A stretch of 64,000 nucleotides of DNA from Porphyridium purpureum (taxonomy: Eukaryota), in the NCBI GenBank assembly GCA_008690995.1, contig VRMN01000014.1:124001-188000 (forward strand). Direction: 5' to 3'. The notes under the pieces are model-generated. The model did not search any database, was not told the DNA's origin, and saw only the letters and a program-made list of their open reading frames with translations. A program made the translations under genes and the position numbers. Every line of letters begins with the position of its first letter. Position 1 is the stretch's first letter. Shown here in pieces: positions 5,996-64,000 of the stretch.

Positions 5996-6303
5996 TGTTA
6001 TGAATCCAGGGTTTCGGTAGATTCCCTCTCCAGGTAAAGTAGTAATACCATGGGGAATGTTTCAGCTCCAACTTTCTGTATTTCTCCAACTTATAGTAAA
6101 TTAGGGTTTTTGCCCTGGAGGTACAGTTGGCAATCTCACTAGTGAAAGCACTACGATTGCCTATATAAAGAGCTTAGCGATGGCCGAGGCTCGGAGTCCC
6201 CGGATGACAAAAGGTAAGGTTAGTTGCAAGGGCGACGAAGGGGACACGCAACTGCGTTAGTGACGAGTCACAAAGACTCCCCGATACATCAGACCTTTTA
6301 ATA
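5996..6303 (+). repeat. Outer 5' LTR (308 bp)
   Basis: TGTTATGAAT...TTTTAATA; lacks the 18-bp internal duplication found in the other three LTRs; has TATATAAAG. Confidence 0.95.
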
Positions 6304-6307
6304 GGTT

Positions 6308-8042: not shown

Positions 8043-8367
8043 TGTTATGAATCCAGGGTTTCGGTAGATTCCCTCCCCAGGTAAAGTAGTAATACCATGG
8101 GGAATGTTTCAGCTCCAACTTTCTGTATTTCTCCAACTTTCTGTATTTCTCCAACTTATAGTAAATAAGGGTTTTTGCCCTGGAGGTACAGTTGGCAATC
8201 TCACTAGTGAAAGCACTACGATTGCCTATATGAAGAGCTTAGCGATGGCCGAGGCTCGGAGTCCCCGGATGACGAAGGTAAGGTTAGTTGCAAGGGCGAC
8301 GAAGGGGACACGCAACTGCGTTAGTGACAAGTCACAAAGACTCCCCGATACATCAGACCTTTTAATA
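8043..8367 (+). repeat. Inner 5' LTR (325 bp)
   Basis: TGTTAT...TAATA; direct repeat of 12689-13013 and 15601-15925. Confidence 0.97.
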
Positions 8368-8380
8368 GGTTATGAGCCCA
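8368..8380 (+). promoter_or_regulatory. Primer-binding site complementary to the anticodon arm of initiator tRNA-Met (half-tRNA priming)
   Basis: GGTTATGAGCCCA directly after the LTR is the reverse complement of TGGGCTCATAACC; same type as Drosophila copia and Ty5. The outer copy has it at 6304-6314. Confidence 0.85.
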
Positions 8381-12649: not shown

Positions 12650-12688
12650 AGGTGGAAGGCATGACGAAAAGTTGTCGCTGCGTGGGAG

Positions 12689-13013
12689 TGTTATGAATCC
12701 AGGGTTTCGGTAGATTCCCTCCCCAGGTAAAGTAGTAATACCATGGGGAATGTTTCAGCTCCAACTTTCTGTATTTCTCCAACTTTCTGTATTTCTCCAA
12801 CTTATAGTAAATAAGGGTTTTTGCCCTGGAGGTACAGTTGGCAATCTCACTAGTGAAAGCACTACGATTGCCTATATGAAGAGCTTAGCGATGGCCGAGG
12901 CTCGGAGTCCCCGGATGACGAAGGTAAGGTTAGTTGCAAGGGCGACGAAGGGGACACGCAACTGCGTTAGTGACAAGTCACAAAGACTCCCCGATACATC
13001 AGACCTTTTAATA
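12689..13013 (+). repeat. Inner 3' LTR (325 bp)
   Basis: Preceded by the purine-rich GCGTGGGAG; followed by TSD ATGCG. Confidence 0.97.
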
Positions 13014-13018
13014 ATGCG

Positions 13019-15561
13019 GACCACTCACTCCTTCGAGTTTTGACGACCATCGATATTTTCTAGTTGTCGTCGACGAATGCTCAAGTTTGAGTGTCGTCCA
13101 CTTGCTCGAGCGAAAAAGTGAAGCGGGTGAAATGTTACTGCGCACACTTAAATATCTCGAAACGACTCTTGGTGCAAAGGCAAAAAGAGTTCGGTCCGAC
13201 AAAGGTGGCGAATTCGCAAGCCTTTATGTGCAAAGGCATCTCCAAGACTCTGGAATTACTTGGGAAAATACCTCTGCTTACACGCCAGAACTTAATGGTA
13301 TGGCTGAACGCATGAATCGGACATTACTCGAAAAGGTTCGAAGCTTATTGTTTGATAGTAATCTACCTTTGGAAAATTGGAGTAATGCTTTGTTGACTGC
13401 GAATTATTTGCGAAATCGCATTTCAAATAATCGCGGGAAAACGCCGATAGAAATTGCATTCAGGCAAAGGCCAGATCTCAGCAATCTCAGAATCTACGGA
13501 TCGAGAGCGTTTGTTCATATTCCTAAGCAATTGCGAGGAAAACTAGAAACAAGATCTGCAATTGGATGCTTGGTCGGTTATGGAAATGTCCATTCCGTTT
13601 ATCGCATTCTTCTATCGGATGGCACGGTCGTTGAAAGTCGAAATGTCACTTTCGATGAGTCTGTCGTTGGAATAGATGTTCATGAACATGAAATCCACGA
13701 TTCGGAATATTTTTCCAACTTCGATAAAATTGTCGAAGAGTTGTTTCCAAAAGATTTCTCGAAGTCGTTTGATGAAAAGTCTCAAATCGCGTCAAAAAAT
13801 TTTGAAACAGATTCCACTCGACAAATGGATGATCGCAGTCAGGAATATTCTATTTCAAATGAAATCGGAGAAACGTTTCTGGAAAAAGTTCAGAATAATT
13901 CGAAAGATTTAGGGTTCCAAAAAGCTCCAAATGGAAACTTTGGGAATACTGAGGATGACGAAAGTCAAGACAGTGGATATGTCGCAAATCAATTCGTTGG
14001 AATAATTTCCACCGTTTCTGAACCTCGGTCAGTCGAAGAAGCACTAAAGGGTGACTTCTCTGAGCAATGGCTGGAAGCTCTGAATAGAGAATTGGAATCT
14101 CTCACTGGCAACTGCACGTGGGAGCTCGTCGATCGTCCACAGGACCGAATTCCTGTCAGATGCAAATGGGTTTTTAAGATCAAATATAATGTCAACGGAC
14201 AAATTGATCGGTTCAAGTGTCGACTTGTCGCAAAAGGTTTCACTCAGAAACCTGGTTTGGACTACGACGAAGTGTTCAGCCCTGTTGTGCGACACAACAC
14301 TATTCGAACGGTCCTGGCAGTAGCAGCTGCAAGAAAGTTGAAAATTCGACTTTTCGATGTGGTGACTGCGTTTCTCAATGGAGAACTTCATGAAGAAATT
14401 TTCATGGAACAGCCTCCTGGATTCGTACATGAAGGAGGAAAAGTCCTGAAACTGCGTAAAGCAATCTATGGATTGAAGCAGGCATCTCGAGCTTGGAATC
14501 AAGTTCTTGTGCAAGCACTTAAAGAAATCAATTTTTCCGAAAGTACGGCAGATCCTTGTCTGTTTTCTAAGGGTCCAAATGATCCGTATATCATGATTTA
14601 CGTCGATGACTTGGTCTTCATAGGTGAAGACGAAGTTACTTCAAATGAAGTGCTTCTGCATTTGCAAGGCAAGTTTGAAGTCAGGGATCTTGGGCAAGTG
14701 GTCAAGCAAAAATTTGCCGGCTACACTCTTGATTATGATCAAAGGAATGGCATTATCAGACTTAATCAAAGCTTGTATGTCCAAACCATCCTGGAAAGGT
14801 TCGGAATGGAATCGGCGAATCCAAGGAAGCTTCCCATGGAAAAGGATACGAAGTGGTATACTGCTACTGCAGAACCATGCAAGATGCCTTACATGGAACT
14901 CGTGGGAGCACTAATGTATTTGTGCACTTGCACGCGTCCGGATATTTCCTTCGCCGTGGGAGTGCTTGCACGATCAATGGCAAATGCCAATGAATCCCAT
15001 TGGAATGCGGCAAAGGGAGTGCTGCGATATCTTAAAGGAACCATAAATTATGGTCTCCAATTTAGCTCAAATGGCAACTCCGACCTAATTGGTTACGTTG
15101 ATTCAGACTATGCTAGTGATCTTCGAACGCGAAGGTCAACCACCGGATATGCTTTCACGATCAATGGATCAGTTGTCTCCTGGAAATCCAGGCTACAACC
15201 AACTGTGGCGCTGTCCACAACCGAAGCAGAGTACATGGCTCTCTCGGATGCATGTAAAGAAGCCCAGTGGTTTCAATATCTCATGGAATTCCTAGGATTC
15301 AAGTCGAAATCGATTCCAATGTTTTGTGACAATGATGCTGCACTGAAACTGAGTGAGAACCCGATTGTGCACGAAAGGTCGAAGCACATTGACGTGAGAA
15401 AGCACTATGCTCGCGAATGTCAGCAACGGGGAATAGTCAAGGCTATTTACATTCGCACATCAGATCAGGCAGCAGATTTCCTAACCAAAGTGGTTCCTCG
15501 AGAAATGTTTTTGAAATGCAAAACCTTATTGGGTGTTGCTTGTCTTGAAAATTCGAGATAG
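13019..15561 (+). pseudogene. 3' half of the outer gag-pol (integrase core, RT, RNase H)
   Basis: Resumes exactly after the TSD; matches the inner copy apart from GPN-G vs GPN-D at ~14581. Confidence 0.95.
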
Positions 15562-15600
15562 AGGTGGAAGGCATGACGAAAAGTTGTCGCTGCGTGGGAG

Positions 15601-15925
15601 TGTTATGAATCCAGGGTTTCGGTAGATTCCCTCCCCAGGTAAAGTAGTAATACCATGGGGAATGTTTCAGCTCCAACTTTCTGTATTTCTCCAACTTTCT
15701 GTATTTCTCCAACTTATAGTAAATAAGGGTTTTTGCCCTGGAGGTACAGTTGGCAATCTCACTAGTGAAAGCACTACGATTGCCTATATGAAGAGCTTAG
15801 CGATGGCCGAGGCTCGGAGTCCCCGGATGACGAAGGTAAGGTTAGTTGCAAGGGCGACGAAGGGGACACGCAACTGCGTTAGTGACAAGTCACAAAGACT
15901 CCCCGATACATCAGACCTTTTAATA
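15601..15925 (+). repeat. Outer 3' LTR (325 bp)
   Basis: Matches the inner LTRs rather than the outer 5' LTR. Confidence 0.95.
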
Positions 15926-32713: not shown

Positions 32714-33760
32714 TGTCACGGGAGTAGCCCGTGTGTTAAGGAAATGATTAAAAAATAGCCATAGTCCGTGGCCGGATACCTGGTCGCGCCGGACCCACTG
32801 TACTGTAGGTGTACAAGGGGGCGCGTGGTAGGCCTGAAGGCCCCTTCCCTTAGGGACCAGACGCGCGATGACCACCCAGTATGGAATGGGTGTACAGCCA
32901 GGAGGTGGCTGGAACCTTCTGGGAGATTCTAGACTCAGCGACAGCAAGGCACTGTACCTCGGGGGTACAGTGGTCGCGATGGGTATAAAAAGACGCGCGG
33001 GTCGGCAACCAAGGGGGGGAGAGGGGGGTCGGGAGAGAGAAGGAGTAAGGTGGATCTAAGTAAAAACAGGTGTATTCAAGGGAGCGTGTTCGGGCCTTGG
33101 GTACCTGTTGAGGGAGCGGGGGTACAGCGGGAGTACAGCGGGGGTACGGCGGGGGTACGGCGGGAGTACAGCGCGAGCGAGCGAGCGGGGGGTTTAACGG
33201 GGAAGGTTCGCGGATGCCCTGGGGTAAGGCGTCATTAGACGGTCCTTGTTCGGAAGTGGATCCGGGGGTGGTACGTGGGCGGGGGCGGATAAAGGAGTGA
33301 TAGGCCGTTTGAAGCCGAAAGGTGAGGCAACCTCCTCCGGCTAACCCCGGCTGCCCACAACGCCTCCCCGGGTCCCGGATCACCGTAAGGTGTGGCCGAA
33401 CGGGATCCCGGTTGGGCAGCGGACGCCTGGTTCCCCCGTTACGCGCGTCTTCCGTGTGTGTGCTTTTGGTTGGCTGTGCCTGCTCCGTGCGTGTGCTCTT
33501 GGTTGGCTGTGTCTTTCCCGTGTGTCTGCTCTTGGTTGGTTCTGTCGGTCCCGTGTGTGGGTGCTCTTGGCTGTTTGCGTGTGAGCAGCGTGCGTGAGCG
33601 TCGTTGGTTCCGGGTTTCCTGCCTGCCGCAGGTCCAGTTGACTGCGGGTGTCTTGTGTTTCCTCTTGGTTGCGTGGATTGTCCAGCTTGTGTGCGTGCGT
33701 GTGCCGCTTGGCTTGCTGTTGGGTGTGCCGCGGTGTCCTGGGCCAGCACGGTTCGTGACA
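32714..33760 (+). repeat. Chromovirus 5' LTR (1047 bp)
   Basis: Direct repeat of 38894-39939 with about 8 substitutions and 1 indel counted by eye; TATAAAAA at ~32984. Confidence 0.96.
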
Positions 33761-33939
33761 TAATTTCCGGAAATTATCTTCCAGGATTGCGTGGCATCTG
33801 ACGTTGGTGCGAGAGAGGGTGGGGTGTGGACGTGAGATCGGTCTTGATCTTGGGCAAACTTGTGTCCACATTCTGATACGTACGGTCACCGAGTGAAGGA
33901 TTGCGAGAGAGGATTCGGAGCAGGAACGAAGTCGCAGAA

Positions 33940-34881
33940 ATGGTGCGTGGCAGGAAGACGACGATGGGCTCAGACGATGCGCGAGAGCACGCGTCCTCGA
34001 GCGAGCTGGAACGTGCACAGGCTGGCGCGCTGGCACCAGAGCCGACAATGCCCACGGCTCGTGGTGACGAGATAGGAAGTCATGGGGTTGTGAGTGTTCA
34101 GCAGAAGGAAGAGGGTGTCCCCGCCATTGTGCGCGGCAAGATTCGTTCTCAACTGGGCCAGGCTATTTGTGACGCGGGCGTGCAGATTGAGAAGGCCGGT
34201 GATCCACTTTTTCTGACCGCCAAGATGGTCTGGTTCAATCGCCTGCGTGACATGGGAGAGGATCCAGACCAACATGTATCCTCGATTGATGCAGTTTTCC
34301 GCGGGGTGGGGCTGAGGAAATGCTACGAGGTCCTGTCGGAGTTGCACGGTGCAACAGCACAAGAGGCATGGGCGGCTGTGGCTGCTTACTTCTACAACAA
34401 GGAGCACGAGCGCGCCCTTCGTGCAGAGCATCACGATGTTGAGTATGTTATTGGCCAGGACCTGAAGAAATTCGTGGAAGTTCTGGAGGATCGCTGCACG
34501 GCTCTGGGAGAATCTGACACTCGCAAGATTGAGGCACTTACGTTGGCGCTTCCGAAAAACTCCGAGCTGCGTCGTCAGGCCAGGACGTATGGCATACAGG
34601 GGAACTGGACCTTGATGAAGACTGCTCTGTTGGAGGAGGCTGGTCAGTATGGAACCTTTGGTGCGCTTGGCTCGCAGTACGGTGCAAGGGCAGTGAGGAA
34701 GCCCGAGCGCGTGCACCATTTGGGTAACTTTGATGAAGCTGGGCTCCCTGGGTTGAATCCTCGCAAGCGACTGGTCAAGTGCTGGGAGTGCCAGGAGCGG
34801 GGCCACGTTCGCATGGAGTGCCCAAAGTGGGAGAAAAATAAGAGGCAGAGGACCGAAGAACGCCAGACAAAAAACGAGTAG
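33940..34881 (+). CDS. gag: Chromovirus Gag with CCHC zinc knuckle
   Basis: CWECQERGHVRMEC; first in-frame ATG at 33940. Confidence 0.9.
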   Translation: MVRGRKTTMGSDDAREHASSSELERAQAGALAPEPTMPTARGDEIGSHGVVSVQQKEEGVPAIVRGKIRSQLGQAICDAGVQIEKAGDPLFLTAKMVWFNRLRDMGEDPDQHVSSIDAVFRGVGLRKCYEVLSELHGATAQEAWAAVAAYFYNKEHERALRAEHHDVEYVIGQDLKKFVEVLEDRCTALGESDTRKIEALTLALPKNSELRRQARTYGIQGNWTLMKTALLEEAGQYGTFGALGSQYGARAVRKPERVHHLGNFDEAGLPGLNPRKRLVKCWECQERGHVRMECPKWEKNKRQRTEERQTKNE

Positions 34882-34904
34882 CGGGGGGATGCGAAGGCCC
34901 CCCG
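34869..34904 (+). promoter_or_regulatory. -1 programmed ribosomal frameshift signal
   Basis: A_AAA_AAC slippery heptamer in the gag frame, a 6-nt spacer, then a CGGGGGG/CCCCCCG stem with a 9-nt loop; pol is in the -1 frame and open through the site. Confidence 0.88.
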
Positions 34905-37900
34905 GAATCTGAAGAATTGTCGGAGGCAGTCCCACTGGGCTCGTATCCGTGGATAGACGTACAGGCTGAATGGGGAGGTCTGAAGGTTCGGACTACTGCG
35001 CTGGTTGATACGGGGGCTTTATCCACGTGGATGAACGACGATTTGGCTGACCGTCTTGGGCTTCTTCGCAGAAAGACCCACACACAGGCATTGGGCCCAA
35101 CCAATGAGGTGTTGGGGGAGGCCGAGAAGAGCGTTGCCACAATTTGGGTTGGTGAGGGAATTCAGTCGGAGGAAAGCGTCCGGATTATGAGGAACCTCGG
35201 ACCTGATCTCATACTGGGAATGCGTTTTCTTGCCAAGCATGTCAGTTACTTGATCCCGGGAAGGGGTCTGGGCCTACGCTCGGGCGGATGGATTACTTTC
35301 GTCAACCGAGACGTTTCCAGTGCACAGGAAGCCGTGTGTCATACATGCCTGGAAAGACACAGGATCCTGGGATCGATGTATGAGGAAGCCAAACCCACGG
35401 TGCAGTTGGAGGCGGTGCACTATATTGCTGATGGAGCAGAAGTGAAGAAGCGAATCCAGGCCCTCGAAGAAAAGTATGCAGGTCACAACGAGGCTGTTTG
35501 TACTACCATTGAAGCCAAGATCTTTGAGCATTTGGATGAAGCGCAAAGCAGGGAGATGAAAGGGCTCTTGAAGAAGTTTTGGGTTCTCTTCCGGCCGGAG
35601 CTGGGTAAGACAGACCTCGTCGAGCATACGATTCGCATCAAGCCAGAGCGTTTGGAGGATCTCCCCAGGGCAAGGTTACGTCGCAGGGCTCCTGCGGTGA
35701 CGCAGGCTGAGCGCGAGATGGTGCAAGGGCTGGTCGCCCGAGGAGTGCTGGAGCCGAGTTTGTCAGATGTGTCGAGCCAGAATGTCATGGTCAAGAAGCC
35801 GAATGGCGGCTGGCGTCTGACGACAGACTTCCGAACGCTTAATGATGCGACTGTCAAAGATCGATATCCCATTCCGGACGTGGGAGAGATGATCGACTGG
35901 TTTGCATCGTGGAAGTTCAAGAGTATCCTGGATCTGAAGGATGGCTTCTTCCAGGTCCCTCTGGCCCCCGAGAGCCGACCATTGACAGCGATTATCACTC
36001 CGGACGGGCTGTTTCAATACTGCCGATTACCTCAGGGTTGCTGTAATAGCCCAAGTACCTTCCAGCGATTGACAAATACGGTCCTGGGCCCGCTCAGGTA
36101 CCTGAATGCATTGGTTTACATTGATGATTTGGCAATCGGGACAAAGACGTTTGAAGAGCACTTGCAAGCGCTGCAGCGGGTGCTGGAGCAATTCTGCGCT
36201 GCGGGCTTGGTGTTCTCATTGTCGAAGTGCAGATTTGGGGCTTTAAGGGTCGAGTTTCTTGGACATGATATCGGCCTGGACGGTATAAGGCCGAGCCAGA
36301 GGAAGACGGAGGCTGTGCGAGCATGGCAGGAGCCGAGGAATGCAAAGGAACTGCAGCAGTTCATTGGGCTCGTGGGGTGGTTCCGCAATTTTATCGAGGG
36401 ATTTGAGGAAGTCTGCAGACCTCTTAGGGATGCTATGAAGGGGCTTCAAATCAACGCCAAAGGAAGCAAGTGGAAAAAATACCCCATGAACTCGGCGGAT
36501 TGGCAGGCACGATTTGGTGAGCCTCAGCGTCAGGCATTTCTATCGCTGCGGGAAGCACTCAGTGATCCAGAAACTGGAGATCGAAAGGTTTTGGCTGCAT
36601 ACGACCCAGAAGCAGAGCATACGCTGTGGACAGACGCTTCTAGCACTGGCTTGGGAGCAATGTTGACGCAGAGGGAGGGTACTGGCGATCGTCCAGTGGC
36701 ATTTTACTCGAGGCTTCTGAGACCGGCCGAGCAGAACTATACCGTGACGGAGAAGGAGTGCTTGGCCGCCATTGCAGCCATGGAGCACTTCAGACATTAC
36801 TTGTACGGCAAACGATTCGTGCTCATGACTGACCACAGCGCATTGAGCTGGCTCATGAGGCAAAAGGAGCCTCAAGGTCGGATTGCGCGATGGATTCTCA
36901 AGGTACAGGACTTCGACTTCCAGGTTCAGCATCATCCAGGCAAGGCGAATACAGTGGCAGATGCGCTTTCGCGTCCAGCTGTACGTATGAATGGGGAAGA
37001 GGCTCGGGTGGCGAGCGAGAGCAATAAGTCTGAGACTCTCAACAACACGAGCGAAATCGAGCTCATTGGACTGAATGCTGTTGAGGATGAGGAAGTGAAG
37101 CGGGTAGTTCGGTTGGCTGAAATGCTGCAGGAAGAGATTCAGGGTCCAGCTTCGGGGGCCGATGGGGGTATGGTCCCTGTCACATCGGCCGGAGTGCGAG
37201 AGCTGCTGCTTCATACTGGCGAGCATACAGGAGCGAACGATGCGTACACACCACCTTCGACGGAAGAGATCGTGGCTGCATACGCAGACGACACGGACAT
37301 TCAGGAACAGTTGAAGAATCTGAAAGCAGACAAGCCCGAATACACGTACCCGGAGTACACCGTTGATGAGGATGGAGTCATCTGGGCTATGCTTCGCGAT
37401 GAGTCCAGGGTCGTGATACCAAACGCTCTGGTGCAGCGCGTCCTGCATGTGTATCACAGCACGCCACTTTCAGGGCACCTTGGAATAGAAAAGACTGCAA
37501 AGCGGGTCTCGGATGCACGATACTGGTGGACCGGTTGGACGGAAGATGTTCGTCAGTTTGTTCTTTGTTGCCATGAGTGCTTTTCAAGGAAAACAAAGGC
37601 GCCCCCGAGAAGGGCTCGCATGCAAGTCTATCGCGCGGTGAGACGTTTCGAGATTGTCTCGATAGATGTTCTGAGTATCACACCGACAACAACTCGCGGG
37701 CACAGCAAAGTGGTAATCATGGTGGACGCCTTCACAAAGTGGGTTCGTGCCCATGCAGTCAAGGATGAGACTGCGGCTACACTGGCACGTGTTTTACTAG
37801 ACGGTTGGGTGTGCGATTTTGGACCGCCAGAATCTCTGCTGTCCGACCGGGGACCGGGCTTTGTAGCCGACATCCTTTCAAAAATGTGTGAAAATCTGGG

Positions 37901-38654
37901 TGTAGGACGTATGCTTACGACAGCATACCATCCGCAGACGAACGGGGTTGTGGAGCGCTTTAACCAGACAGTGTGTCAAATGTTGTCGGCATACGTGTGT
38001 GCGAACGGAAAAGACTGGGATCGCTGGTTGCCGGTAATGGTGTATGCGTATAATACAGCCCGGCATGCATCCACGAAGATGTCTCCGTTTGAACTGTTGT
38101 ATGGTGAGCCGGCACGGGACTGGGCAAGTATGGCGGGACCCAGAGCTGTTGAACAAGCAGATGACCTCGCGAAGAAGCTTGCTGCATGTCACGCCATTGC
38201 CAATAAGAATGCGAAGATCGCACAGGATCGGTACACGAAGAACTATGATCGCCGAGTCAGGGAACATGACTTCAAGCCGGGCGACGTGGTGTACGTTTGG
38301 GCGCCGCCTTCAGGAGAAGGGCGCAAGCTGAAAAAGCCGTGGGTAGGACCACTATCCATCCTGAGAATGGTCGGGGTTCATGCAGTACTGTGCAGTGAAG
38401 GCCATCCTGACGGGAAGTTGGTCCACGTGAACCGGCTTGCTCGGGCCCACAAGGACCTCATTGAGGCAAGTGGATCCCAAGTCTTGCAAGGAGAAGACGG
38501 CAGCTGGGCTATAGAGGCTATAGCCGGGGATCGGGTTGTGGGCGGACGCCGAGAGTACAGAGTTAGATGGCGAGGACTCGGTAAACGTGGGGATACGTGG
38601 GAACCTGAGCTCGCATTGCCACCAATGATGGTGGCTGCCTACCGTGACGCGTGA
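34869..38654 (+). CDS. pol: Chromovirus Pol (protease, RT, RNase H, integrase, chromodomain), expressed by -1 frameshift
   Basis: ALVDTGA, LDLKDGFFQ, YIDD, WTDAS, YH..GH.G/CHEC, SDRG, YHPQTNGVVER, and C-terminal WAIEAI..EYRVRWRG...DTWEPE chromodomain. Confidence 0.96.
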   Translation, partial: KKRVAGGCEGPPESEELSEAVPLGSYPWIDVQAEWGGLKVRTTALVDTGALSTWMNDDLADRLGLLRRKTHTQALGPTNEVLGEAEKSVATIWVGEGIQSEESVRIMRNLGPDLILGMRFLAKHVSYLIPGRGLGLRSGGWITFVNRDVSSAQEAVCHTCLERHRILGSMYEEAKPTVQLEAVHYIADGAEVKKRIQALEEKYAGHNEAVCTTIEAKIFEHLDEAQSREMKGLLKKFWVLFRPELGKTDLVEHTIRIKPERLEDLPRARLRRRAPAVTQAEREMVQGLVARGVLEPSLSDVSSQNVMVKKPNGGWRLTTDFRTLNDATVKDRYPIPDVGEMIDWFASWKFKSILDLKDGFFQVPLAPESRPLTAIITPDGLFQYCRLPQGCCNSPSTFQRLTNTVLGPLRYLNALVYIDDLAIGTKTFEEHLQALQRVLEQFCAAGLVFSLSKCRFGALRVEFLGHDIGLDGIRPSQRKTEAVRAWQEPRNAKELQQFIGLVGWFRNFIEGFEEVCRPLRDAMKGLQINAKGSKWKKYPMNSADWQARFGEPQRQAFLSLREALSDPETGDRKVLAAYDPEAEHTLWTDASSTGLGAMLTQREGTGDRPVAFYSRLLRPAEQNYTVTEKECLAAIAAMEHFRHYLYGKRFVLMTDHSALSWLMRQKEPQGRIARWILKVQDFDFQVQHHPGKANTVADALSRPAVRMNGEEARVASESNKSETLNNTSEIELIGLNAVEDEEVKRVVRLAEMLQEEIQGPASGADGGMVPVTSAGVRELLLHTGEHTGANDAYTPPSTEEIVAAYADDTDIQEQLKNLKADKPEYTYPEYTVDEDGVIWAMLRDESRVVIPNALVQRVLHVYHSTPLSGHLGIEKTAKRVSDARYWWTGWTEDVRQFVLCCHECFSRKTKAPPRRARMQVYRAVRRFEIVSIDVLSITPTTTRGHSKVVIMVDAFTKWVRAHAVKDETAATLARVLLDGWVCDFGPPESLLSDRGPGFVADILSKMCENLGVGRMLTTAYHPQTNGVVERFNQTVCQMLSAYVCANGKDWDRWLPVMVYAYNTARHASTKMSPFELLYGEPARDWASMAGPRAVEQADDLAKKLAACHAIANKNAKIAQDRYTKNYDRRVREHDFKPGDVVYVWAPPSGEGRKLKKPWVGPLSILRMVGVHAVLCSEGHPDGKLVHVNRLARAHKDLIEASGSQVLQGEDGSWAIEAIAGDRVVGGRREYRVRWRGLGKRGDTWEPELALPPMMVAAYRDA

Positions 38655-38873
38655 CCAGTGGCGGAACCTCGGACACACCGGCCGGGTGGAGGGCCACGTG
38701 GACGGACGTCCTCTTCGAGTACTTACGTTGCCAAGACGGGCACACGAAGCCGATGGCCAGTGCACGGGCGACATCGAGCTTGAGACGTGGATGCCGGACG
38801 CGTCAAGCATTGGCATGTGCTGTAAGTATGAAGTGACTCTCCGGAAGCTTCGGACCATGTGATACCTGACATT

Positions 38874-38893
38874 GGGAAGCGGAGAGGGTGGGA
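38874..38893 (+). promoter_or_regulatory. Polypurine tract
   Basis: GGGAAGCGGAGAGGGTGGGA immediately before the 3' LTR. Confidence 0.85.
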
Positions 38894-39939
38894 TGTCACG
38901 GGAGTAGCCCGTGTGTTAAGGAAATGATTAAAAATAGCCATAGTCCGTGGCCGGATACCTGGTCGCGCCGGACCCACTGTACTGTAGGTGTACAAGGGGG
39001 CGCGTGGTAGGCCTGAAGGCCCCTTCCCTTAGGGACCAGACGCGCGATGACCACCCAGTATGGAATGGGTGTACAGCCAGGAGGTGGCTGGAACCTTCTG
39101 GAAGGTTCTAGACTCAGCGACAGCAAGGCACTGTACCTCGGGGGTACAGTGGTCGCGATGGGTATAAAAAGACGCGCGGGTCGGCAACCAAGGGGGGGAG
39201 AGGGGGGTCGGGAGACAGAAGGAGTAAGGTGGATCTAAGTAAAAACAGGTGTATTCAAGGAAGCGTGTTCGGGCCTTGGGTACCTGTTGAGGGAGCGGGG
39301 GTACAGCGGGAGTACAGCGGGGGTACGGCGGGGGTACGGCGGGAGTACAGCGCGAGCGAGCGAGCGGGGGGTTTAACGGGGAAGGTTCGCGGATGCCCTG
39401 GGGTAAGGCGTCATTAGACGGTCCTTGTTCGGAAGCGGATCCGGGGGTGGTACGTGGGCGGGGGCGGATAAAGGAGTGATAGGCCGTTTGAAGCCGAAAG
39501 GTGAGGTAACCTCCTCCGGCTAACCCCGGCTGCCCACAACGCCTCCCCGGGTCCCGGATCACCGTAAGGTGTGGCCGAACGGGATCCCGGTTGGGCAGCG
39601 GACGCCTGGTTCCCCCGTTACGCGCGTCTTCCGTGTGTGTGCTTTTGGTTGGCTGTGCCTGCTCCGTGCGTGTGCTCTTGGTTGGCTGTGTCTTTCCCGT
39701 GTGTCTGCTCTTGGTTGGTTCTGTCGGTCCCGTGTGTGGGTGCTCTTGGCTGTTTGCGTGTGAGCAGCGTGCGTGAGCATCGTTGGTTCCGGGTTTCCTG
39801 CCTGCCGCAGGTCCAGTTGACTGCGGGTGTCTTGTGTTTCCTCTTGGTTGCGTGGATTGTCCAGCTTGTGTGCGTGCGTGTGCCGCTTGGCTTGCTGTTG
39901 GGTGTGCCGCTGTGTCCTGGGCCAGCACGGTTCGTGACA
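38894..39939 (+). repeat. Chromovirus 3' LTR (1046 bp)
   Basis: Direct repeat of the 5' LTR. Confidence 0.96.
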
Positions 39940-41788
39940 AGTGGAAGGAAAAGCCCGAGTTCGCGGAACTACGAGGCTAGATTTTAGCCTCCTGTTCTTG
40001 GTAAACTGAATTCCTTTATTCCTTGCTGACAAACGGTGGGTAAGGAAGCCGTAAAACTCATTGCGGAGTGCATTTTGCTACTCCTGCTTTAGAAGCGCCC
40101 TAGCGCTTTCCCGTTTATTCTGATAAAAGCTGGCTAATACTGTTGAGGCTTCCGTCACGACTGAGATGTTCGTCAAAGTTAAACAAACAGTTTATACTCG
40201 TCAGTGCAAAGTTACGCTTTTCACTCCCTAAATCCGTAGCCCTTCTTTTTTGTCACGCCGCCGCCGGGTCGCTCACCAGACCACGCTTTTACACCCAGAA
40301 AGCCGCAAACTCGTCGTTACTGAAATCCCTGGTCGGGCACAGGAGCGCCTACCGCCGAAAGACACGTGCATCGGCACCAACATCTAGAGTATTCTAAGTG
40401 GTGCCATGACTTGTCGGCTCAGCCTGAAACCCAGAACAAATACACGAGCAAAAGCGCGCGACCGCTCGCCTCCGCACGACTGTTGTGCGGGTCGCAAGTG
40501 CGACAATCATGGACACGTCTCCAAAATACAAACACAGAATAGCACTCTTCCGAAACATTGAGCCGCACGCCTGCCCAGTATAGTGCGCGCGTCGGCGGGC
40601 CTGTGTAGTGTTGTTGAGCCTGTGCGTTTGACAAAATCGGATAGTCCTACCGATCAGTCATACTGGAAAATGCATCTGGAGATTAGAATCAGTGCAAACA
40701 GATTGCATAACTTTTCCGACACCGCGAGACCCTACTTGACAAGGTGATCATTCGGGACAGAATACCGGTGTCATGCGCAAGAACCTAAAAATCGAACAGA
40801 CGCATGGGACTGACAGCATGATCAAAAGCGTGAATTCACAAATCAGATTTTAATACAGAAGTTCGACCTCAAAAATGGCCTCTGAAGCTGAACACGAAAG
40901 TAGAAATGAGCGTGCGAGACGGTGAGGGCAGTATACTTTTGAATCGTAACTTGGTCAGAGGTAAAATCGAACATGCGTAAACGAAGCGACTGTATACTGT
41001 CAACTTCGACAGACAACGCGCTCATGTGAAAAGGCAAGACACGGCTGCCTCACGAGCAGGACCTCGAATCACAGCCAAATTTCACGTCATACTTGTGTAA
41101 AGTTAATTCGTTGTTAGAAATGGTCGCAACAGGTTTTTCGTTTGTTGCAGGGCAGCTTGAGATGTGGTGCAAAAGAGGGTGATCGTACGCGGCCCGTCGT
41201 GGACAAGCGGAAAGCCGTGTAGTTCGACAGGGCGTACGCCTCCGCGGACGGGGCCGCCACCGGAATCGAAGGGGTGCGGTGGAAGGGTTAGCGCGGCGAA
41301 GAATTCGGGTAAGGTTTTTTTTCCCTGATGGGTCTTTTAGCGCGACGACTGGCCCATAAAATGCCGCAAAGTTCTGCTGGGATCGATGTACTGAGAGACT
41401 GAAACCGCATGGATTTTTGGCAACGAAACTGGTGTTCGTAACTTTTTGGATTCATCCGCTCGGGCAGAGGTAGCTGGAGAGCGTATGTTGCTGGGAATGG
41501 AGGAAGGACCAATGGGATAGAGTATTTACGGAAAGATACGTTCGTGCGAGACTGGGACTGCTTACGGGGCGTTGCTGTTTGTCCTCTCTTGCGGGGCCGC
41601 AGCACCTCCAACATATGTGGTGCGCGCACGGCCATCGCGTCCTGCTCGGCGCCGAAGCTCCGTGCGCCAGTGAACTGTACCTCTCAACTCACCTGCTTTG
41701 CGTGCACTGTACCTCCGGATGGGCTGGACGCGCGCTTGGCGCGAGCGCGTGTGGCCGTGCGCGCACCACAGGCAGGTGCGTTGACGGC

Positions 41789-58006: not shown

Positions 58007-59158
58007 TCACTCAGATGCGATCGCGCGTGCAGGCGCACCCAAGTAAGATACAACACGAAGCACGTCCGCAAACACCCCGGCTGCCGTAACGGCTGCACCC
58101 GCACCGGGTCCTCGTATTGTTAGTGGCTGCGCATCGTAGCGTCTGGTTCGAAAGAGAACAATATTGTCGGACCCTTCCAGCGCACCAAATGGGTGGCTCT
58201 CTGGAAACGCTTTGAGTTCAACTCCACACGTTTTGCTATTTACATTAATCCAGCCGACGTAGCGCAAGCGCTCCTTTCTTTGCGCCGCCTCGGAAGCCAT
58301 GACTGCCAGCTCACTGTCAAACTCGGGGAGCCTGTCCATAAAAGTTGCCGTCGAAACATCCGGTCCACCCAGGGCTTGCGGCACAAGGCTCTTCACCGGA
58401 ACCTGATCAAGCTCAACCTCGAGGCCAATCTCACGGGCCAGAATGACAACTTTACGCGCGACATCCATCCCGGACAAATCATCGCGCGGGTCTGGCTCGG
58501 TATACCCGGAAAGCTTGGCCGCTGCAACGATTTCCGAGAATGGCCGGGAACCATCAAACGAATTAAAGATGAAGCTGAGCGTGCCTGAAAACACACCAGC
58601 AATCTCCAAGAAGGTGTCTCCGGTGCGCTGGAAATCTCGTATGGTCGAAAGGATCGGGAGACCGGCGCCCACATTCGCTTCGTACAGAAAGTGCGTCGAT
58701 CTCGGACCTTGGCGCTGCGCTGTGCGCAATGCCTTGTATTGCTGCGTGGTGGAAGAATTTGCCTTTTTGTTCGGTGTGACCACATGCACACCCTGCGAAA
58801 GCCAACCACAATAGTGCTGGCTAACGAGCTCAGACGCCGTGCAGTCGCACACAATCACGTGCGGGCTGTTCTGCTTCAGGTGCGCAACCAATACGTCCAG
58901 ATCCAGTGCCACGGACCCGCCTCCCGCCTCCCACTCTGTCCTCCAGACGCTCAGCTCGATTCCTCGCTGCTCAGGCGCATCTGCGGACGACAAGCGCATT
59001 CTCGTGGACGACGCGATCGCGTGCACGCACACCGCGACGCCATACACACCCCGCAACGCTTTGGCCTGCGCATCTATCTGATCCAGCAGCTCCCCGCCCA
59101 CCAGGCCTGCACCAATCACAGCCACACCGACCGTCAACACGTCATTCGGCTCGTCCAT
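58007..59158 (-). CDS. HOM6: Monofunctional homoserine dehydrogenase
   Basis: IGAGLVGGEL, DCTAS, VVTPNKKANS, YEANVGAGLP, FSGTLSFIFN, GYTEPDPRDDLSGMDVARK, GPGAGAAVTAAGVFAD; no aspartokinase domain. Confidence 0.95.
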   Translation of the reverse strand: MDEPNDVLTVGVAVIGAGLVGGELLDQIDAQAKALRGVYGVAVCVHAIASSTRMRLSSADAPEQRGIELSVWRTEWEAGGGSVALDLDVLVAHLKQNSPHVIVCDCTASELVSQHYCGWLSQGVHVVTPNKKANSSTTQQYKALRTAQRQGPRSTHFLYEANVGAGLPILSTIRDFQRTGDTFLEIAGVFSGTLSFIFNSFDGSRPFSEIVAAAKLSGYTEPDPRDDLSGMDVARKVVILAREIGLEVELDQVPVKSLVPQALGGPDVSTATFMDRLPEFDSELAVMASEAAQRKERLRYVGWINVNSKTCGVELKAFPESHPFGALEGSDNIVLFRTRRYDAQPLTIRGPGAGAAVTAAGVFADVLRVVSYLGAPARAIASE

Positions 59159-59263
59159 TCTATCCGCAGCTCTCTCGCGGCTGCTTCCGTACTCACAGAC
59201 ATCTCGCCAGGTCAAACCAGCTCAATTCAATGCCCCCGGCAAAATGGTCGGACCGTTTCGAAG

Positions 59264-59544
59264 TGTCGGCGTAGCGGTCCAGAGCCGCGCAGGCCTGTCC
59301 GCGCGCAAATGGCAGTTTCGGAGCCGTCCTCGCAACGGTCGGGTCGTGCAGGGCCCGTGGCTGGGTGGTAAGACCCACCTCGTCGCCCTGCGCTGCAAAG
59401 GCGCGCGCCGGGCTGGCGGGGTGTATAAAAGCAGCCACACCCGACGGCCGTCGCCTGGTTAGTTCTCTCACAAGAGAAGACGCAAGGAAGAGGAGTAGGA
59501 GATAACGAGTAAACGGGTCGTTCGAGAGAGACGAAGTTTAGACA
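59264..59544 (+). repeat. Putative 5' LTR (281 bp)
   Basis: TGTC...GACA termini, TATAAAA at 59424-59430, purine-rich R/U5; the partner LTR is outside the window. Confidence 0.65.
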
Positions 59545-59590
59545 ACTCCCCAGTTATTGCTTCGGTTGACCGGTTTCGGGTGAAGCAGAG

Positions 59591-60391
59591 ATGGAAAACT
59601 TGCGACAAGCACTGGTTCCGAGGATGGCGCAGGAGCCGGGAGTGCAGGTGTCGCAGCTCAACACCTACGATGGGTCGAGGGACATCATCAAGCTACAGAC
59701 GTGGCTTTTTGCGGCTGGAGATACAGTGTTTGTGCCCCTCAGGGACGCGGTTGGCGTCACCGCCACACGTGACACCGCAGTACGGGCAGCGGCAGAAGCG
59801 AAGGCGGTCCGCGTGGCCGCGACGTATCTACGTGGAAGCGCGTTGGTCTGGTGGATTGCGTTGAGCAGGGCCGGGGACGATCCCGCGGTCTGGGATACGT
59901 TTGTTCGCGAGCTGGAGGACCAGTTCACACCTCCCAACGCGGCCCGGGCGGCGTACAACGATCTGGCTGCGCTTGTGCAAAAGCACAGCGTGGCGCGTTA
60001 CATCGACGAGTTCCAGATGTGCATTCTCCGCATCCCTCGTATCACTGAGGACGAGAAGCTGGACCGCTTCGTTCGAGGTCTTAAGAAGCCACCGAGAGTG
60101 GAAGTGCTGAAGTCAGGCGCTACAACAGTAGCTGATGCCATGCGCATCGCACTGTCCGTGGATTCCGCTTACGCGGATGCCCCGCGGGGAGCGTGCGCGC
60201 GGGATGACGGCCCAGTTCCCATGGAGCTGGGTGCAGTTGGATTCTCGACGGCGCAAGGTGGCGGTACTGACAACGCCCGCAAGGTCAAATGCTGGCGTTG
60301 TGGCAAGGCAGGCCACAGGAAGGCCGATTGTCGGGCAAAGGAGGTGGATGAACCGGCGTCAGGAAAAGCGGGAGCCTCCACGCGGGCATAG
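59591..60391 (+). CDS. gag: Retrotransposon Gag (Ty3/gypsy-like capsid, PMELG motif, CCHC knuckle)
   Basis: AATYLRGSALVWW, WDTFVRELEDQF, LVQKHSVARYIDEF, RFVRGLK, GPVPMELG, CWRCGKAGHRKADC. Confidence 0.88.
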   Translation: MENLRQALVPRMAQEPGVQVSQLNTYDGSRDIIKLQTWLFAAGDTVFVPLRDAVGVTATRDTAVRAAAEAKAVRVAATYLRGSALVWWIALSRAGDDPAVWDTFVRELEDQFTPPNAARAAYNDLAALVQKHSVARYIDEFQMCILRIPRITEDEKLDRFVRGLKKPPRVEVLKSGATTVADAMRIALSVDSAYADAPRGACARDDGPVPMELGAVGFSTAQGGGTDNARKVKCWRCGKAGHRKADCRAKEVDEPASGKAGASTRA

Positions 60392-63300
60392 CCGGTCTGT
60401 CGATGGGGGCGTCCGGGGTAGCGGTCGACGCAGGCCGGAGAATCACGGCGCTGTTCTCGTCGCCGTGTAGCGTTACGGTGACGCTAGATGGCTCTGTTGA
60501 GGCGCGAGCGCTCGTTGACAGCGGCGAAAATGCCTGCTTCGTGCGACGAGACGTTGCTGATGCGCTGCATGCTGCACGTGCCGGCGAGAAAAGCGCGTGT
60601 TCAGATCCTGGTTTTAGCATTCAGTTGGCGGACGAGTCGAAGACGCATGCCAAAGGCATGCTGCGTGCGCAGGTGGAGGTCGGAGAGGTCCCTCTTTTCG
60701 GAATTGCTCGCACCCTCCTCACCGCTCATTTCCTCGGTTTAGAGAAGCTGAGCTATGATGTGGTTTTGGGGAAATCGTGGCTAGAGGCAGGTTTGCCAAA
60801 GCCGGTCGCAGAAGGCGAGGAACAAGCCGCGGAATCGTTGGCGTTGGATGGAGCCCAGGCAGCGCTGACGCATGAACTCATGCACACGCCCAGGGACCCG
60901 TCCTGTGAGGCGTGCCAGACCGGGAAACAGCGCAGAACGTCTTCTACACGTTCGGGTGCGCAAGCGGTTCGGCGGTCCGCTATTGAGGTCGATTTAATCG
61001 ATTCAGGAGCCCGGGAAGAAGGGTGGTCGCGTGGCGGGGCGCGGTACGTAATGGTCTGCCTTGACCATCGCGACCGCTGGCTCACGGTTCATGCTCTTCG
61101 GGAGAAAACGGCGGAAGCGACCGCTGCAGCGTTTATTCGCGGACTGGCAGGACAGTCGTGGCCGGAGGTCGTCAAGACAGACGACGGACGAGAGTTTACT
61201 GGGGCGTTCTCGAAAGCTGTAGTTGAGCACGGTGCGAGGCACGAAGTTGCAGTACCTCGCCGCCCGAACACGCACGCGCCCGTCGAGTCAATGAATCGGA
61301 CGCTGTTGGGAGCTGTGAGAGCCTCTCTTGTTTCCTCTGGTCCCCCTGCGCGCTTTTGGGAGGATGCGACACTGCATTTTGCATTCGTGTGGAACAGGGC
61401 CCACAGGCCAAACGGCTCTCCGCATGAAGCAAGGCATCAGGTGTTGTCCCGACAAGACAAGCTGTTGCCGTTTGGGTGCGCGGTTATGTACTTCGACGAC
61501 GAAGCGTCAAAGTTTGCGGCAAGGGCTCGTCTGGGCGTGTTGATTCGCTATCACGAAGAATCCGGCATCGTGGCAGTCGACGCAGAGCAGCTGGCAAGCG
61601 GGCGGACTCGGGAAATCGTCACAAGGGATTTCGTACCCCGGCGAGGTGAGTACCCGGCCCGTCGTCTCGGTCTGCGGCCGTTGGGAGAGCGGATATGGCT
61701 GGAGGATGAATATGAGGCAGGCGAGGGCCCAGCGGCAGAACTTTGCGGCCGATGTCATAAAAGGCGGGTCACCGCAGTGGCATGTCCTAGGTGCCTGGGA
61801 AGAAAGGCGCGCCGGCATCGGCGGGATGCGACGTGTGCGATCGGGGCCTGCAGATGCTCGCCAGCCGAAATCCTTAGTCGTGAACGTCGGGTCGCCGCTC
61901 GCGCAGAGCGGGAGACGGGACGGATTTATCAAAGCGAAAAGCGCGAGCGCGAGCGGGCCGCGCGAGCACTAGCGGTGGAAGGCAAGCGAGAGCGGAAGGA
62001 ACAGAAAAAGGCGCGGAGGGCAGCTGCTGTCCGGCTGCGTCCACAGCCCGCGAGCCTCGTGGAACCCGCGCCCAGGTTGACTGTGCCGAGGTCGACACGG
62101 TCCGTGTTACCAATGATGTGCCTTTTCACTCTCTGTTTTTTCTTCTCCTTTCTCCGAGCAAGACCTGACCGGCGAGTCCGGGCAGGCGCGTCGCCTTTTT
62201 TATACCCTTTCTTCCGCCAGGGACAGCAAGGCACCAAGAAAAATAACGATGCAAATCATTGGCATTTCTGCGCACGTCTAGAGCGTTCTGGAACCTCTAG
62301 AAGCTTCTACAAACGGTTCAACGGTCTACCGGTTTAACGGCTTACCGGTTTCGGATTAGCCGAACCGTTCTAAGCGACTGGGGTCGAACGGATGACAGTC
62401 CCGCCGTGTTGTTCGGCAGCCCGGAAAACTCAGCCTGGGGGTCACCGTCGTCGTGCCCCGCAGCGAGGTATTGGGACAATCGTGCTCCGCGAAGGCGCGC
62501 ACCGTCGAATGTGAACGATTGAAAAGGTTCGGCACATGGAACCCGATTCCAATCTCCTTTGAATCAGCGAGGCCGGACCCTTCGGCTACCTTTGTCAACG
62601 CACATTTCATTTACGCAATGAAACACGCGGAGTGCGACGTCGACAAGAGGATTGCAAAGGTTCGACTGGTTGCGGCTGGCAACAATTTGCGCGATGTAGG
62701 GGGCGCGCTAACTCATCAGGACGTGCCATACGCAGCCCCGGCAAGCCTCGCGTCACTTCGTGTCACCGTGGCGCTTGCGGCTGCTCGCGGGCACAGTGTG
62801 GCAAAGCTAGACGTGACATCCGCATACCTACAGGTCCAACTCGGAGGGCCGCCGGTATTCGTTCGACTGCCGAAGGAGCTTCCCGAGTCGCGAGATGGAG
62901 TATATAGGCTGGAGAAGGTGCTGTATGGCCTCGAGCGCTCTGGTGCGGACTTCATAGCGGAGACCTCGAAGAAGCTACAAGCCCAGGGATGGCGTGAGGT
63001 TGCTCAGTCGTTGTTCGTACGCGATAGCACCACACTGTTGGCATACGTTGACGACTTTCTTTTGACCGGAGAGCAAGAGAGTGTGCGGCGTGCGGCGTGC
63101 GATTTACAGACATTGTATGAGTTTGACAACGAGCCGGTTTTCTTGGAAGAAGATGCGCCACTCGTTTTCTTGGGAATAACTCTGCGACTGACCGCGGATT
63201 GGGTGCAGCTGGACCACACAGAGTATGCGCGCTACGCGTCACGGAACGCCTCTACGGGGCCCATGCGCAGGAAGGGACCGAGAACGTCCGACGTGGAGGC

Positions 63301-64000
63301 GGCCGTGGAGGAGTTCGAGGAGTCATTCGAAGATGACGGGCGAGCTCGCAAGGTCATTGGAGCTCTGCTTTGGCTTTCGCGTACAACTCGGCCGGATATT
63401 GCGCGTGCAACGGCGCGAGTCGCTTGCTCAAAAGACTCGAGGATTACGTGTTGTGTAACCCCAGCAGCGTGATTCGGTACCCCAGGCAACGAGTGATCGA
63501 CGGCAGTTGCCGCGTTATCGCGTTCAGTGACTCAGACTTCGCGGGCGATTCTGCTGCAAAAGCGCGCAGTACAAGCGGGGCTGCATTTTTCTTGGAATTG
63601 GGCGGCGCAAGGTATCTCGTGGACTGGTCGAGCGGGCTCCAGCGAGCTGTGTCCACAAGCTCAGCGGAGGCGGAGCTTGTGGCGTTAGCGTCGGCTTGCA
63701 AGAGAGTGTTCGCTGTCTTGGAATGTCTACCGGAGCAAGAAGGCACCAAGGTCGAGGTGCGTTCGGACAGTGCGGCGGCTTTGGGCGCCGTGCGCCGTGG
63801 ATGGTCTGCAAAACTCGCGCATGTGCGCAGGACGCAAAGGGTCTGTGTCTCGTGGCTTCACGATCTGGAGGAGCAGCAGGGCTTCATTTTCGTGTGGGTT
63901 CCTTCCTGGCGCAACGCCGCGGATATCTTAACCAAGAGCTGCGGTCCACTCGAATTCTTGCGTAAGATTGGGCTCTTTGAGAACGAACGGGTCTTTCGCA
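60352..64000 (+). pseudogene. pol: pol (protease-integrase-RT-RNase H), disrupted by a solo LTR and later frameshifts
   Basis: ALVDSG..YDVVLGKSWL; HELMHTPRDPSCEAC, EVDLID, KTDDGREF, VESMNR; KVRLVAAG, LDVTSAYLQ, KVLYGL, YVDD; FSDSDFAG, STSSAEAEL, NAADILTK. Confidence 0.88.
62105..62397 (-). mobile_element. Solo LTR (293 bp) inserted antisense between integrase and RT
   Basis: TGTTAC...TGACA; flanks GTCCG/GTCCC; minus-strand GGGTATAAAAAGG; removing 298 bp rejoins the INT and RT frames. Confidence 0.85.

Follow-up and report, generated by a model that had tools for sequence, protein, structure and literature searches.

A Porphyridium retrotransposon lineage combining a Ty3/Gypsy-type gag and protease with Copia-type integrase, reverse transcriptase and RNase H

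When examining a 64,000-nt stretch of Porphyridium purpureum contig VRMN01000014.1 (GCA_008690995.1), hereafter the window, we found that the LTR retrotransposon at positions 59264..64000 combines a gag and a protease (PR) of the Gypsy type with an integrase (INT), a reverse transcriptase (RT) and an RNase H (RH) of the Copia type, all encoded on the forward strand. Probably, this layout arose a single time, by recombination at the PR-INT boundary in an ancestor that four families have in common, and the window element is a defective copy from this lineage. A first-pass annotation had already read the element as such a hybrid, leaving the choice between a recombinant and an undescribed lineage; Pfam searches, profiles, trees and the four families support the hybrid reading and, of these two options, favor the undescribed lineage, which probably goes back to an ancient recombination event. 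No description was found in the literature searched. Every motif named in the annotation was located in the window, at the positions given below for each domain.

The gag (59591..60391) encodes a Ty3/Gypsy-type capsid with the motifs YLRGSALVWW (59825), WDTF (59891), SVARY (59987) and FVRGL (60068), followed by a PMELG motif (GPVPMELG, 60209) and one CCHC knuckle (60290-60331), and is 98% identical to P. purpureum protein FVE85_2862. In the domain comparison proposed by the annotation, it matched PF19259 (Ty3_capsid; 5e-14, 52.5 bits, cut-off 29.1) and PF03732 (5e-16, 59.1 bits) and did not match the Copia gag family PF14223. The gags of all four families score above the cut-off for PF19259 and none matches the Copia gag families PF14223 and PF14244 in Pfam, and PF19259 was matched by none of five conventional Copia elements. 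PF03732, put forward as a Gypsy-gag marker, does recognize the window gag but also the plant Copia gag P0050 and was rejected as a sole criterion. Outside Porphyridium, 21 proteins, known here as gags alone, are 26-39% identical to this gag, and 20 of them are annotated as Ty3_capsid. A profile built from 15 non-Porphyridium gag relatives gave 118-140 bits with the four Porphyridium gags and at most 4 bits with the N-terminal parts of six Copia-type proteins (one returned no row). Among PDB entries, the best match of gag profile A1 was Ty3 Gag (6e-15), the Copia VLP protein being matched only via the knuckle (E 0.05); a profile from the four Porphyridium gags alone gave no significant capsid match in PDB, and the capsid profile missed the gag of the Gypsy element resident in the window as well. 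The predicted capsid fold does not discriminate between Gypsy and Copia: in VIA-align, PEG10 came first (Z 14.0), followed by the capsid of Drosophila Copia (Z 11.9), which lay above Ty3 (10.8), and Foldseek ranked dArc first and Copia 12th.

Downstream of the protease, the element is of the Copia type in both sequence and domain order (PR-INT-RT-RH). The integrase (60871..61650) contains an HHCC finger (H-x3-H-x6-C-x2-C), a D-62-D-34-E core and a Copia-type SH3-like part; it matched the Pfam family rve (4e-6) and, under the cut-off, SH3_retrovirus (9e-3). An integrase profile scored five conventional Copia elements at 46-68 bits versus 25 bits for the window's Gypsy, and in a small, quick integrase tree the single Gypsy reference had no resolved placement. 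A Cys/His-rich domain 3' of the integrase (61744..61857) is kept in all four families (alignment A2). The RT (62403..63428; RLVAAG 62663, DVTSAYL 62810, KVLYGL 62915, YVDD 63044) matched RVT_2 at 1.5e-14 versus 0.27 for RVT_1, with RVT_2 present in all four families, and the RT profile recognized 11 references of the Copia type but missed the window's Gypsy. The RNase H (63433..64000, continuing past the window end; SDSDFAG 63526, STSSAEAE 63652, ADILTK 63919) yielded a profile that matched only Copia references. In Pfam, there was no match at cut-off to RVT_1, RT_RNaseH, Integrase_H2C2 or the chromodomain. The claim of an integrase preceding a Copia-type RT and RNase H is thus borne out by RVT_2, the motifs and the RT and RNase H profiles.

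The annotation had allowed that the element might be the only copy; this is contradicted by the four families of P. purpureum, all with a Gypsy-type gag and a Copia-type pol, which show 26-65% identity per domain, with the protease seen in three. In families F2, F3 and F4, known from gene models alone, gag and pol lie in one gene model or in consecutive accessions on one scaffold. In trees built without a named Gypsy reference set, the four families comprise a clade for Gag as well as for Pol (100/99), and the two trees agree in setting F1 and F2 apart from F3 and F4. As four diverged families have the same Gypsy/Copia mix, an ancient exchange between these two major groups of LTR elements is likely. 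Scans for relatives beyond Porphyridium recovered no further hybrid: the metagenome integrase scan gave 3 loci from 40 stretches, namely, two ordinary Copia elements and one unrelated gene, and no relative was found in scans of viral contigs and prokaryote genomes.

An unlikely but not negligible alternative is that no swap occurred and that these families are a deep Copia branch retaining an ancestral Gag and protease that look Gypsy-like today. Such a scenario is compatible with the fold shared by Copia and Gypsy capsids, seen in our VIA-align comparison and described in a passage of PMC12440569, and with the high divergence of pol, which in the four families is only 24-28% identical to the next Copia matches. 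It is, however, at odds with the similarity of the gag to Ty3_capsid proteins outside Porphyridium, with no sequence signal to Copia gags. Moreover, in the RT tree (99/98) and the Pol tree (100/99), the sister of the four families is a pair of unnamed Copia sequences from ENA, P0052 and P0066, which share with them the CxxCxG..HxxDxxC motif. Unlike the four families, P0052, the closest Copia by Pol and compared from the pol side only, has a WIVDTG-type protease without ILG, which fits replacement on the four-family branch although the P0052 branch is long.

The window protease (60436..60790; ALVDSG 60508, IQLAD 60619, YDVVLGKSWL 60754) matched Gypsy-side Pfam families at or under the curated cut-offs (PF13650, 6e-5 to 1e-3; PF13975, 4e-4; PF08284, 0.22), so the annotation of a Gypsy-like protease agrees with weak profile matches and with the VLG motif. 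It is rather improbable that only the gag is of Gypsy origin, with a protease that is a divergent Copia form or was gained separately. The matches under cut-off would be in line with this possibility, as would an hhalign comparison with the window's Gypsy protease that covered 23 columns at a probability of 17% and sequence searches of PDB that gave nothing significant. Against it, the same three Pfam families were matched by all three visible proteases, each of which has VLG or ILG within a conserved D-x-x-LG-x-x-W, and the window's Copia protease was not matched (E 0.38). According to a section of PMC2774666, VLG/ILG is the non-Copia state of the protease and LLS the motif of the Copia protease. 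Pol_BBD was absent from the three visible proteases; it was likewise absent from seven divergent Copia-type matches. The model of the protease structure was poor (pLDDT 45) and a fold search from it meaningless. Neither gag nor protease, which might have grouped with Copia, matched Copia profiles, and a transfer of both remains the preferred reading.

The gag-PR-INT region is physically continuous. Public contigs from both DNA runs span 60280-60960 without a gap, no gap or joint was found in this interval in any of the four runs, and sense RNA reads likewise pass through uninterrupted. Nesting at this locus or a misassembly is therefore rejected, and the breakpoint that the annotation had envisaged at the PR-INT junction did not appear. 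That a Gypsy and a Copia element were accidentally merged here, by nesting and deletion or by misassembly, can hardly be maintained: nesting does occur, given the solo-LTR-like insert in the window copy and an LTR of the window's Gypsy inserted in another copy at a site matching 60911-60914, but the same gag and pol types recur in four diverged families with matching trees, the interval is devoid of joints in the four runs, and the gag of the resident Gypsy (32714-39940), considered as a donor and rejected, is unrelated.

Programmed -1 frameshifting involves an X_XXY_YYZ heptamer plus a downstream structure. As annotated, gag ends at 60391 and the pol frame, shifted by -1, begins at 60352. The resulting overlap (60352-60391) contains a heptamer (60361-60367), and a hairpin is predicted after it, at about 60369-60415 (z -1.6; 9 of 200 shuffles as stable); an Rfam search gave no match. 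In the window, the heptamer is A_GGA_AAA, not a canonical slippery site. A canonical heptamer, G_GGA_AAA, with G at 60361, occurs in some sister copies (contigs of X3 and X9 and 14 of 63 X24 reads), making -1 frameshifting in intact members likely; it is absent from the window and from most RNA reads, the non-canonical A being found in 49 of 63 X24 reads.

The window copy itself is defective: it carries an insert resembling a solo LTR, has lost 37 nt and lacks its primer site. The boundaries of its 5' LTR (59238..59558; TATA-like TATAAAA at 59424) were inferred: the start is mutated, and the 3' end and primer-binding site are missing. The loose ends of other copies put the LTR TG at about 59238, most likely the true start rather than the annotated 59264, and locate the LTR end, together with a primer site of the TGGTATCA type, immediately ahead of 59559; read depth is higher in the LTR than in the flank. 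As to the 3' LTR, a joint from 64000 to 59241 in all four runs indicates an LTR beyond the window, presumably within some 50-100 nt of the RNase H; in the tail of P0026, 8 of 13 residues match the 5' LTR translation. The pol frame is broken twice, within 62105-62402 and near 63411-63428. The first break is caused by a 293-bp insert (62105..62397; TG..CA, flanks GTCCG and GTCCC), which is probably the solo LTR of a different, abundant element; insert depth is very high in runs X1 and X2, and an insert-free joint from 62102 to 62403 is found in all four runs. The second is the loss of 37 nt relative to sister copies (63411..63428), marked in all four runs by a joint that leads from 63428 to 63411 across 19 intervening letters. 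Compared with sister copies, the PR-INT region of the window shows 16 silent and 21 replacement differences among the 40 sites listed out of 46, a pattern that is consistent with decay and offers no sign of selection.

In the most probable reading, a single recombination at the protease-integrase boundary founded the lineage. The Gag of intact members would form a Ty3-like particle, Pol would be reached by a -1 frameshift at G_GGA_AAA, the polyprotein would be cleaved by the Gypsy-type protease, and the Copia enzymes would reverse-transcribe the RNA, primed at the TGGTATCA-type site, and integrate the product; the lineage may still be mobile. A broader and more tentative proposition, which we consider almost evenly balanced, is that Metaviridae and Pseudoviridae can exchange the capsid-protease module as a whole and have done so more than once. 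The Porphyridium families would then be an independent, still-transcribed hybrid lineage that fits neither virus family and whose Copia enzymes depend on a particle and a protease of Gypsy origin.

By convention, Copia and Gypsy count as two distinct superfamilies, each with a set of domains that moves together. In a large survey of plants, as described in part of PMC6317226, elements that bore signs of a chimeric origin were discarded as likely mispredictions, so real hybrids may be missing from reference collections. A lineage in which Copia enzymes are combined with a Gypsy shell and protease, and which has diverged to approximately 50% identity, would show the packaging half to be separable from the copying half. 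The lineage offers a natural test of protease adaptation to foreign cleavage sites and of the choice of RNA and primer by a foreign Gag, and its host is an alga that can be cultured and that transcribes the element.

Among known systems, Ty1/Copia (Pseudoviridae) resembles the Porphyridium element in the PR-INT-RT-RH order, the RVT_2 RT, the RNase H motifs and the SH3-like integrase tail. The Porphyridium element differs in its Ty3_capsid gag, ILG-type protease, separate gag and pol frames, short HHCC finger, D-34-E spacing and extra Cys/His domain. With Ty3/Gypsy (Metaviridae; Ty3, PEG10 and Arc capsids) it shares the Gag profile match to Ty3 and the protease Pfam families, and with PEG10 a -1 overlap ahead of the protease (an excerpt of PMC10516033), whereas its integrase precedes the RT, and RT and RNase H are of the Copia type. 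Gmr1-like Gypsy elements, according to the same section of PMC2774666, likewise place the integrase upstream of the RT, behind a gag and a protease of the Gypsy type. Gmr1, however, is a Ty3/Gypsy lineage, unlike the Porphyridium element with its Copia-type integrase, RT (RVT_2) and RNase H. Peddigari 2008 reportedly describes, to judge by the title, a copia-like element of Porphyra yezoensis with a gypsy-like integrase. That would be another red-algal Copia element with one Gypsy-like domain, but there the odd domain is, by title, the integrase, whereas in Porphyridium the integrase scores as Copia and the gag-PR part is odd. PyRE10G is classed as GalEa-like in a portion of PMC3587641, which also gives the GalEa clade of Copia the primer-binding site TGGTAGCAGAGC and the finger HX4HX30CX2C; in contrast, the Porphyridium sister copies have a TGGTATCA-type site, and the finger is H-x3-H-x6-C-x2-C.

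The LTR retrotransposon that extends from about position 59238 beyond the end of the window represents a hybrid lineage that is real, old and composed of several families. The first-pass annotation had read a gypsy/copia hybrid from the sequence alone, and all the motifs and frames that it named were found in the window sequence, with gag at 59591-60391 and the pol frame starting at 60352, in the -1 frame relative to gag. In Pfam comparisons, this gag matched PF19259 (Ty3_capsid) with 52.5 bits against a cut-off of 29.1, and PF03732 as well; the protease matched PF13650 and PF13975, both under the cut-off, and was followed by rve, SH3_retrovirus and RVT_2, in that order. Two elements of the same window served as internal controls, namely, a conventional Copia (PF14223, Pol_BBD and RVT_2) and a chromodomain Gypsy (PF13650, PF13975 and RVT_1). 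The hybrid protease falls in the same Pfam families as that of the Gypsy control, and the integrase and reverse transcriptase (RT) in those of the Copia control.

A gag search yielded 24 matches among 4306 candidates, three of them Porphyridium purpureum proteins (98, 51 and 48% identity) and the other 21 being records at 26-39% identity, 20 of which are annotated with PF19259. Many of the outside gag relatives (P0006-P0022) have C-terminal GN, GK or LN, endings that, judging from the protein sequences, would be compatible with a slippery site of the form G_GGA_AAC, G_GGA_AAA or U_UUA_AAC. Of the 14 matches that the pol search gave among 7991 scored candidates, three were further proteins of P. 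purpureum and 11 were of Copia type, with 24-28% identity. Cluster look-ups grouped the Porphyridium proteins into four families: F1 (the window copy, P0027 and P0002), F2 (P0003 and P0001, KAA8493470 and 71, and the single model P0028), F3 (P0004 and P0048, KAA8498187 and 88) and F4 (P0061, P0049 and P0063, KAA8491363 to 61, and the single model P0062), of which F2-F4 are known here from gene models alone. Identity between families is 49-54% for Gag and 26-42% for the protease (both figures for F1, F2 and F4; the F3 gene model has no protease), 43-65% for the integrase, 43-52% for RT and 48-57% for RNase H, and the catalytic residues of all four enzymatic domains are conserved in the alignment across the families showing each domain. 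At 61174-61299 the integrase has a D-34-E spacing, versus the usual 35, and the alignment of all four families is gap-free there.

The RT and RNase H profiles of the four families matched Copia-type references only, and the integrase profile favours Copia, with 46-68 bits for five conventional Copia elements versus 25 bits for one Gypsy. The gags of all four families passed PF19259, which matched none of five conventional Copia elements; PF03732 was never the sole criterion because a plant Copia gag matches it too. The gag profile A1 matched Ty3 Gag (6e-15) and dArc (1.5e-9), its match to the Copia VLP protein being confined to the knuckle; a profile built from the four Porphyridium gags alone gave no significant capsid match. 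PF13650, PF13975 and PF08284 were each matched by three hybrid proteases, none of which matched Pol_BBD. These proteases end in VLG or ILG; according to PMC2774666, LLS is the Copia state and ILG that of other groups. In a Gag structure model (pLDDT 75), Foldseek ranked dArc first and Copia twelfth and the BFVD comparison placed a fungal metavirus first, and VIA-align placed the Copia capsid second, higher than Ty3. Set against the sequence evidence, the predicted fold does not discriminate between Gypsy and Copia capsids.

Phylogenetic trees with 18 of the 21 outside gag relatives and seven of the 12 Copia-type references recovered F1-F4 as a clade with 100/99 support for Gag and likewise for Pol. 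F1 and F2 were joined in both (Gag 89/63, Pol 100/100); F3 and F4 were joined at 98/93 in the Gag tree and were not resolved in the Pol tree. The trees fit joint inheritance of gag and pol as a single unit. Six of the 24 listed public sequencing runs were compared. The segment 60280-60960 is contained uninterrupted in contigs of X3 and X9, which show 29 differences and no gap there; X23 and X24 RNA reads, their strand judged from a neighbouring gene, cover this segment on the sense strand with no joint. An LTR follows RNase H in all four of the runs concerned (a joint from 64000 to 59241), which are not all independent because one may be the window's own source. By its Pol the lineage is best classed with Copia, as a variant whose gag and protease do not qualify as Copia-type; an ancient module swap is its probable origin.

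The window copy itself is damaged. Its pol is disrupted between integrase and RT by a 293-bp insert (TG..CA) that occupies 62105-62397 and is flanked by a near-perfect 5-bp duplication, and a second time, ahead of RNase H, by the loss of 37 nt near 63411-63428; sister copies in four of four runs are free of the insert and retain the missing 37 nt. The solo-LTR-like insert, which shows a strong minus-strand RNA signal and a contig depth of 74,000-98,000 in X1 and X2, versus 200-400 on the flank, is likely a very abundant element of the P. purpureum genome. According to X1 contigs, this repeat is inserted at 59916 in other copies, and part of gag (59644-60356) may be deleted. The window copy lacks the 3' end of the LTR and the TGGTATCA-type site, both present in sister copies, where we take the latter to be an initiator-tRNA primer site. 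About 50 nt beyond the window, the public gene model of the window copy enters a stretch resembling an LTR, in which 8 of 13 residues are identical to the 5' LTR translation, as would be expected if the LTRs have diverged and the insertion is old.

The hybrid 5' LTR lies head to head with a homoserine dehydrogenase gene (58007-59158, minus strand), about 80 bp from its start, and may be inside the promoter of this gene; the flank-LTR join is also present in X1, X2 and X9. The chromodomain Gypsy, at 32714-39940, has a pol that is long and open and LTRs that hardly differ from each other, and its LTR is inserted in another hybrid-family copy at a site matching 60911-60914. The conventional Copia, at 5977-15899, has a single ORF (8042-12987), tandem partial duplicates and, after the LTR, GGTTATGAGCCC, which resembles a half-tRNA primer site.

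A Ty3-like particle would be built from Gag, and Pol would be expressed via -1 frameshifting. The heptamer G_GGA_AAA is in the gag frame in X3 and X9 contigs and in 14 of 63 X24 reads, with a predicted hairpin 3' of it (z -1.6); the window copy and most reads have the weaker A_GGA_AAA. The Gypsy-type protease would then process a Pol whose remaining domains are Copia.

No description of a Copia element with a Gypsy gag and protease was found in the literature searched, which did not extend to subscription journals and Repbase reports, and the combination is absent from the passages seen of PMC5445492, PMC2774666, PMC2806351, PMC6317226, PMC3587641, PMC12440569 and PMC10516033. A title cited in PMC5445492 names a Copia element of a red alga whose integrase is Gypsy-like, and GalEa-like ESTs are recorded in Porphyridium (PMC3587641). 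The closest Copia by Pol, the unnamed P0052, sits on a long branch; a Cys/His motif that follows its integrase is shared with the hybrid families, but its protease is of the WIVDTG type. As proposed for the hybrid families, the protease of PEG10 lies behind a -1 frameshift (PMC10516033), Gmr1 is a Gypsy with the Copia domain order (PMC2774666), and CoDi-A is a Copia with a chromodomain, recombination within Copia being described as well (among PMC5445492, PMC2774666, PMC2806351, PMC6317226 and PMC3587641).
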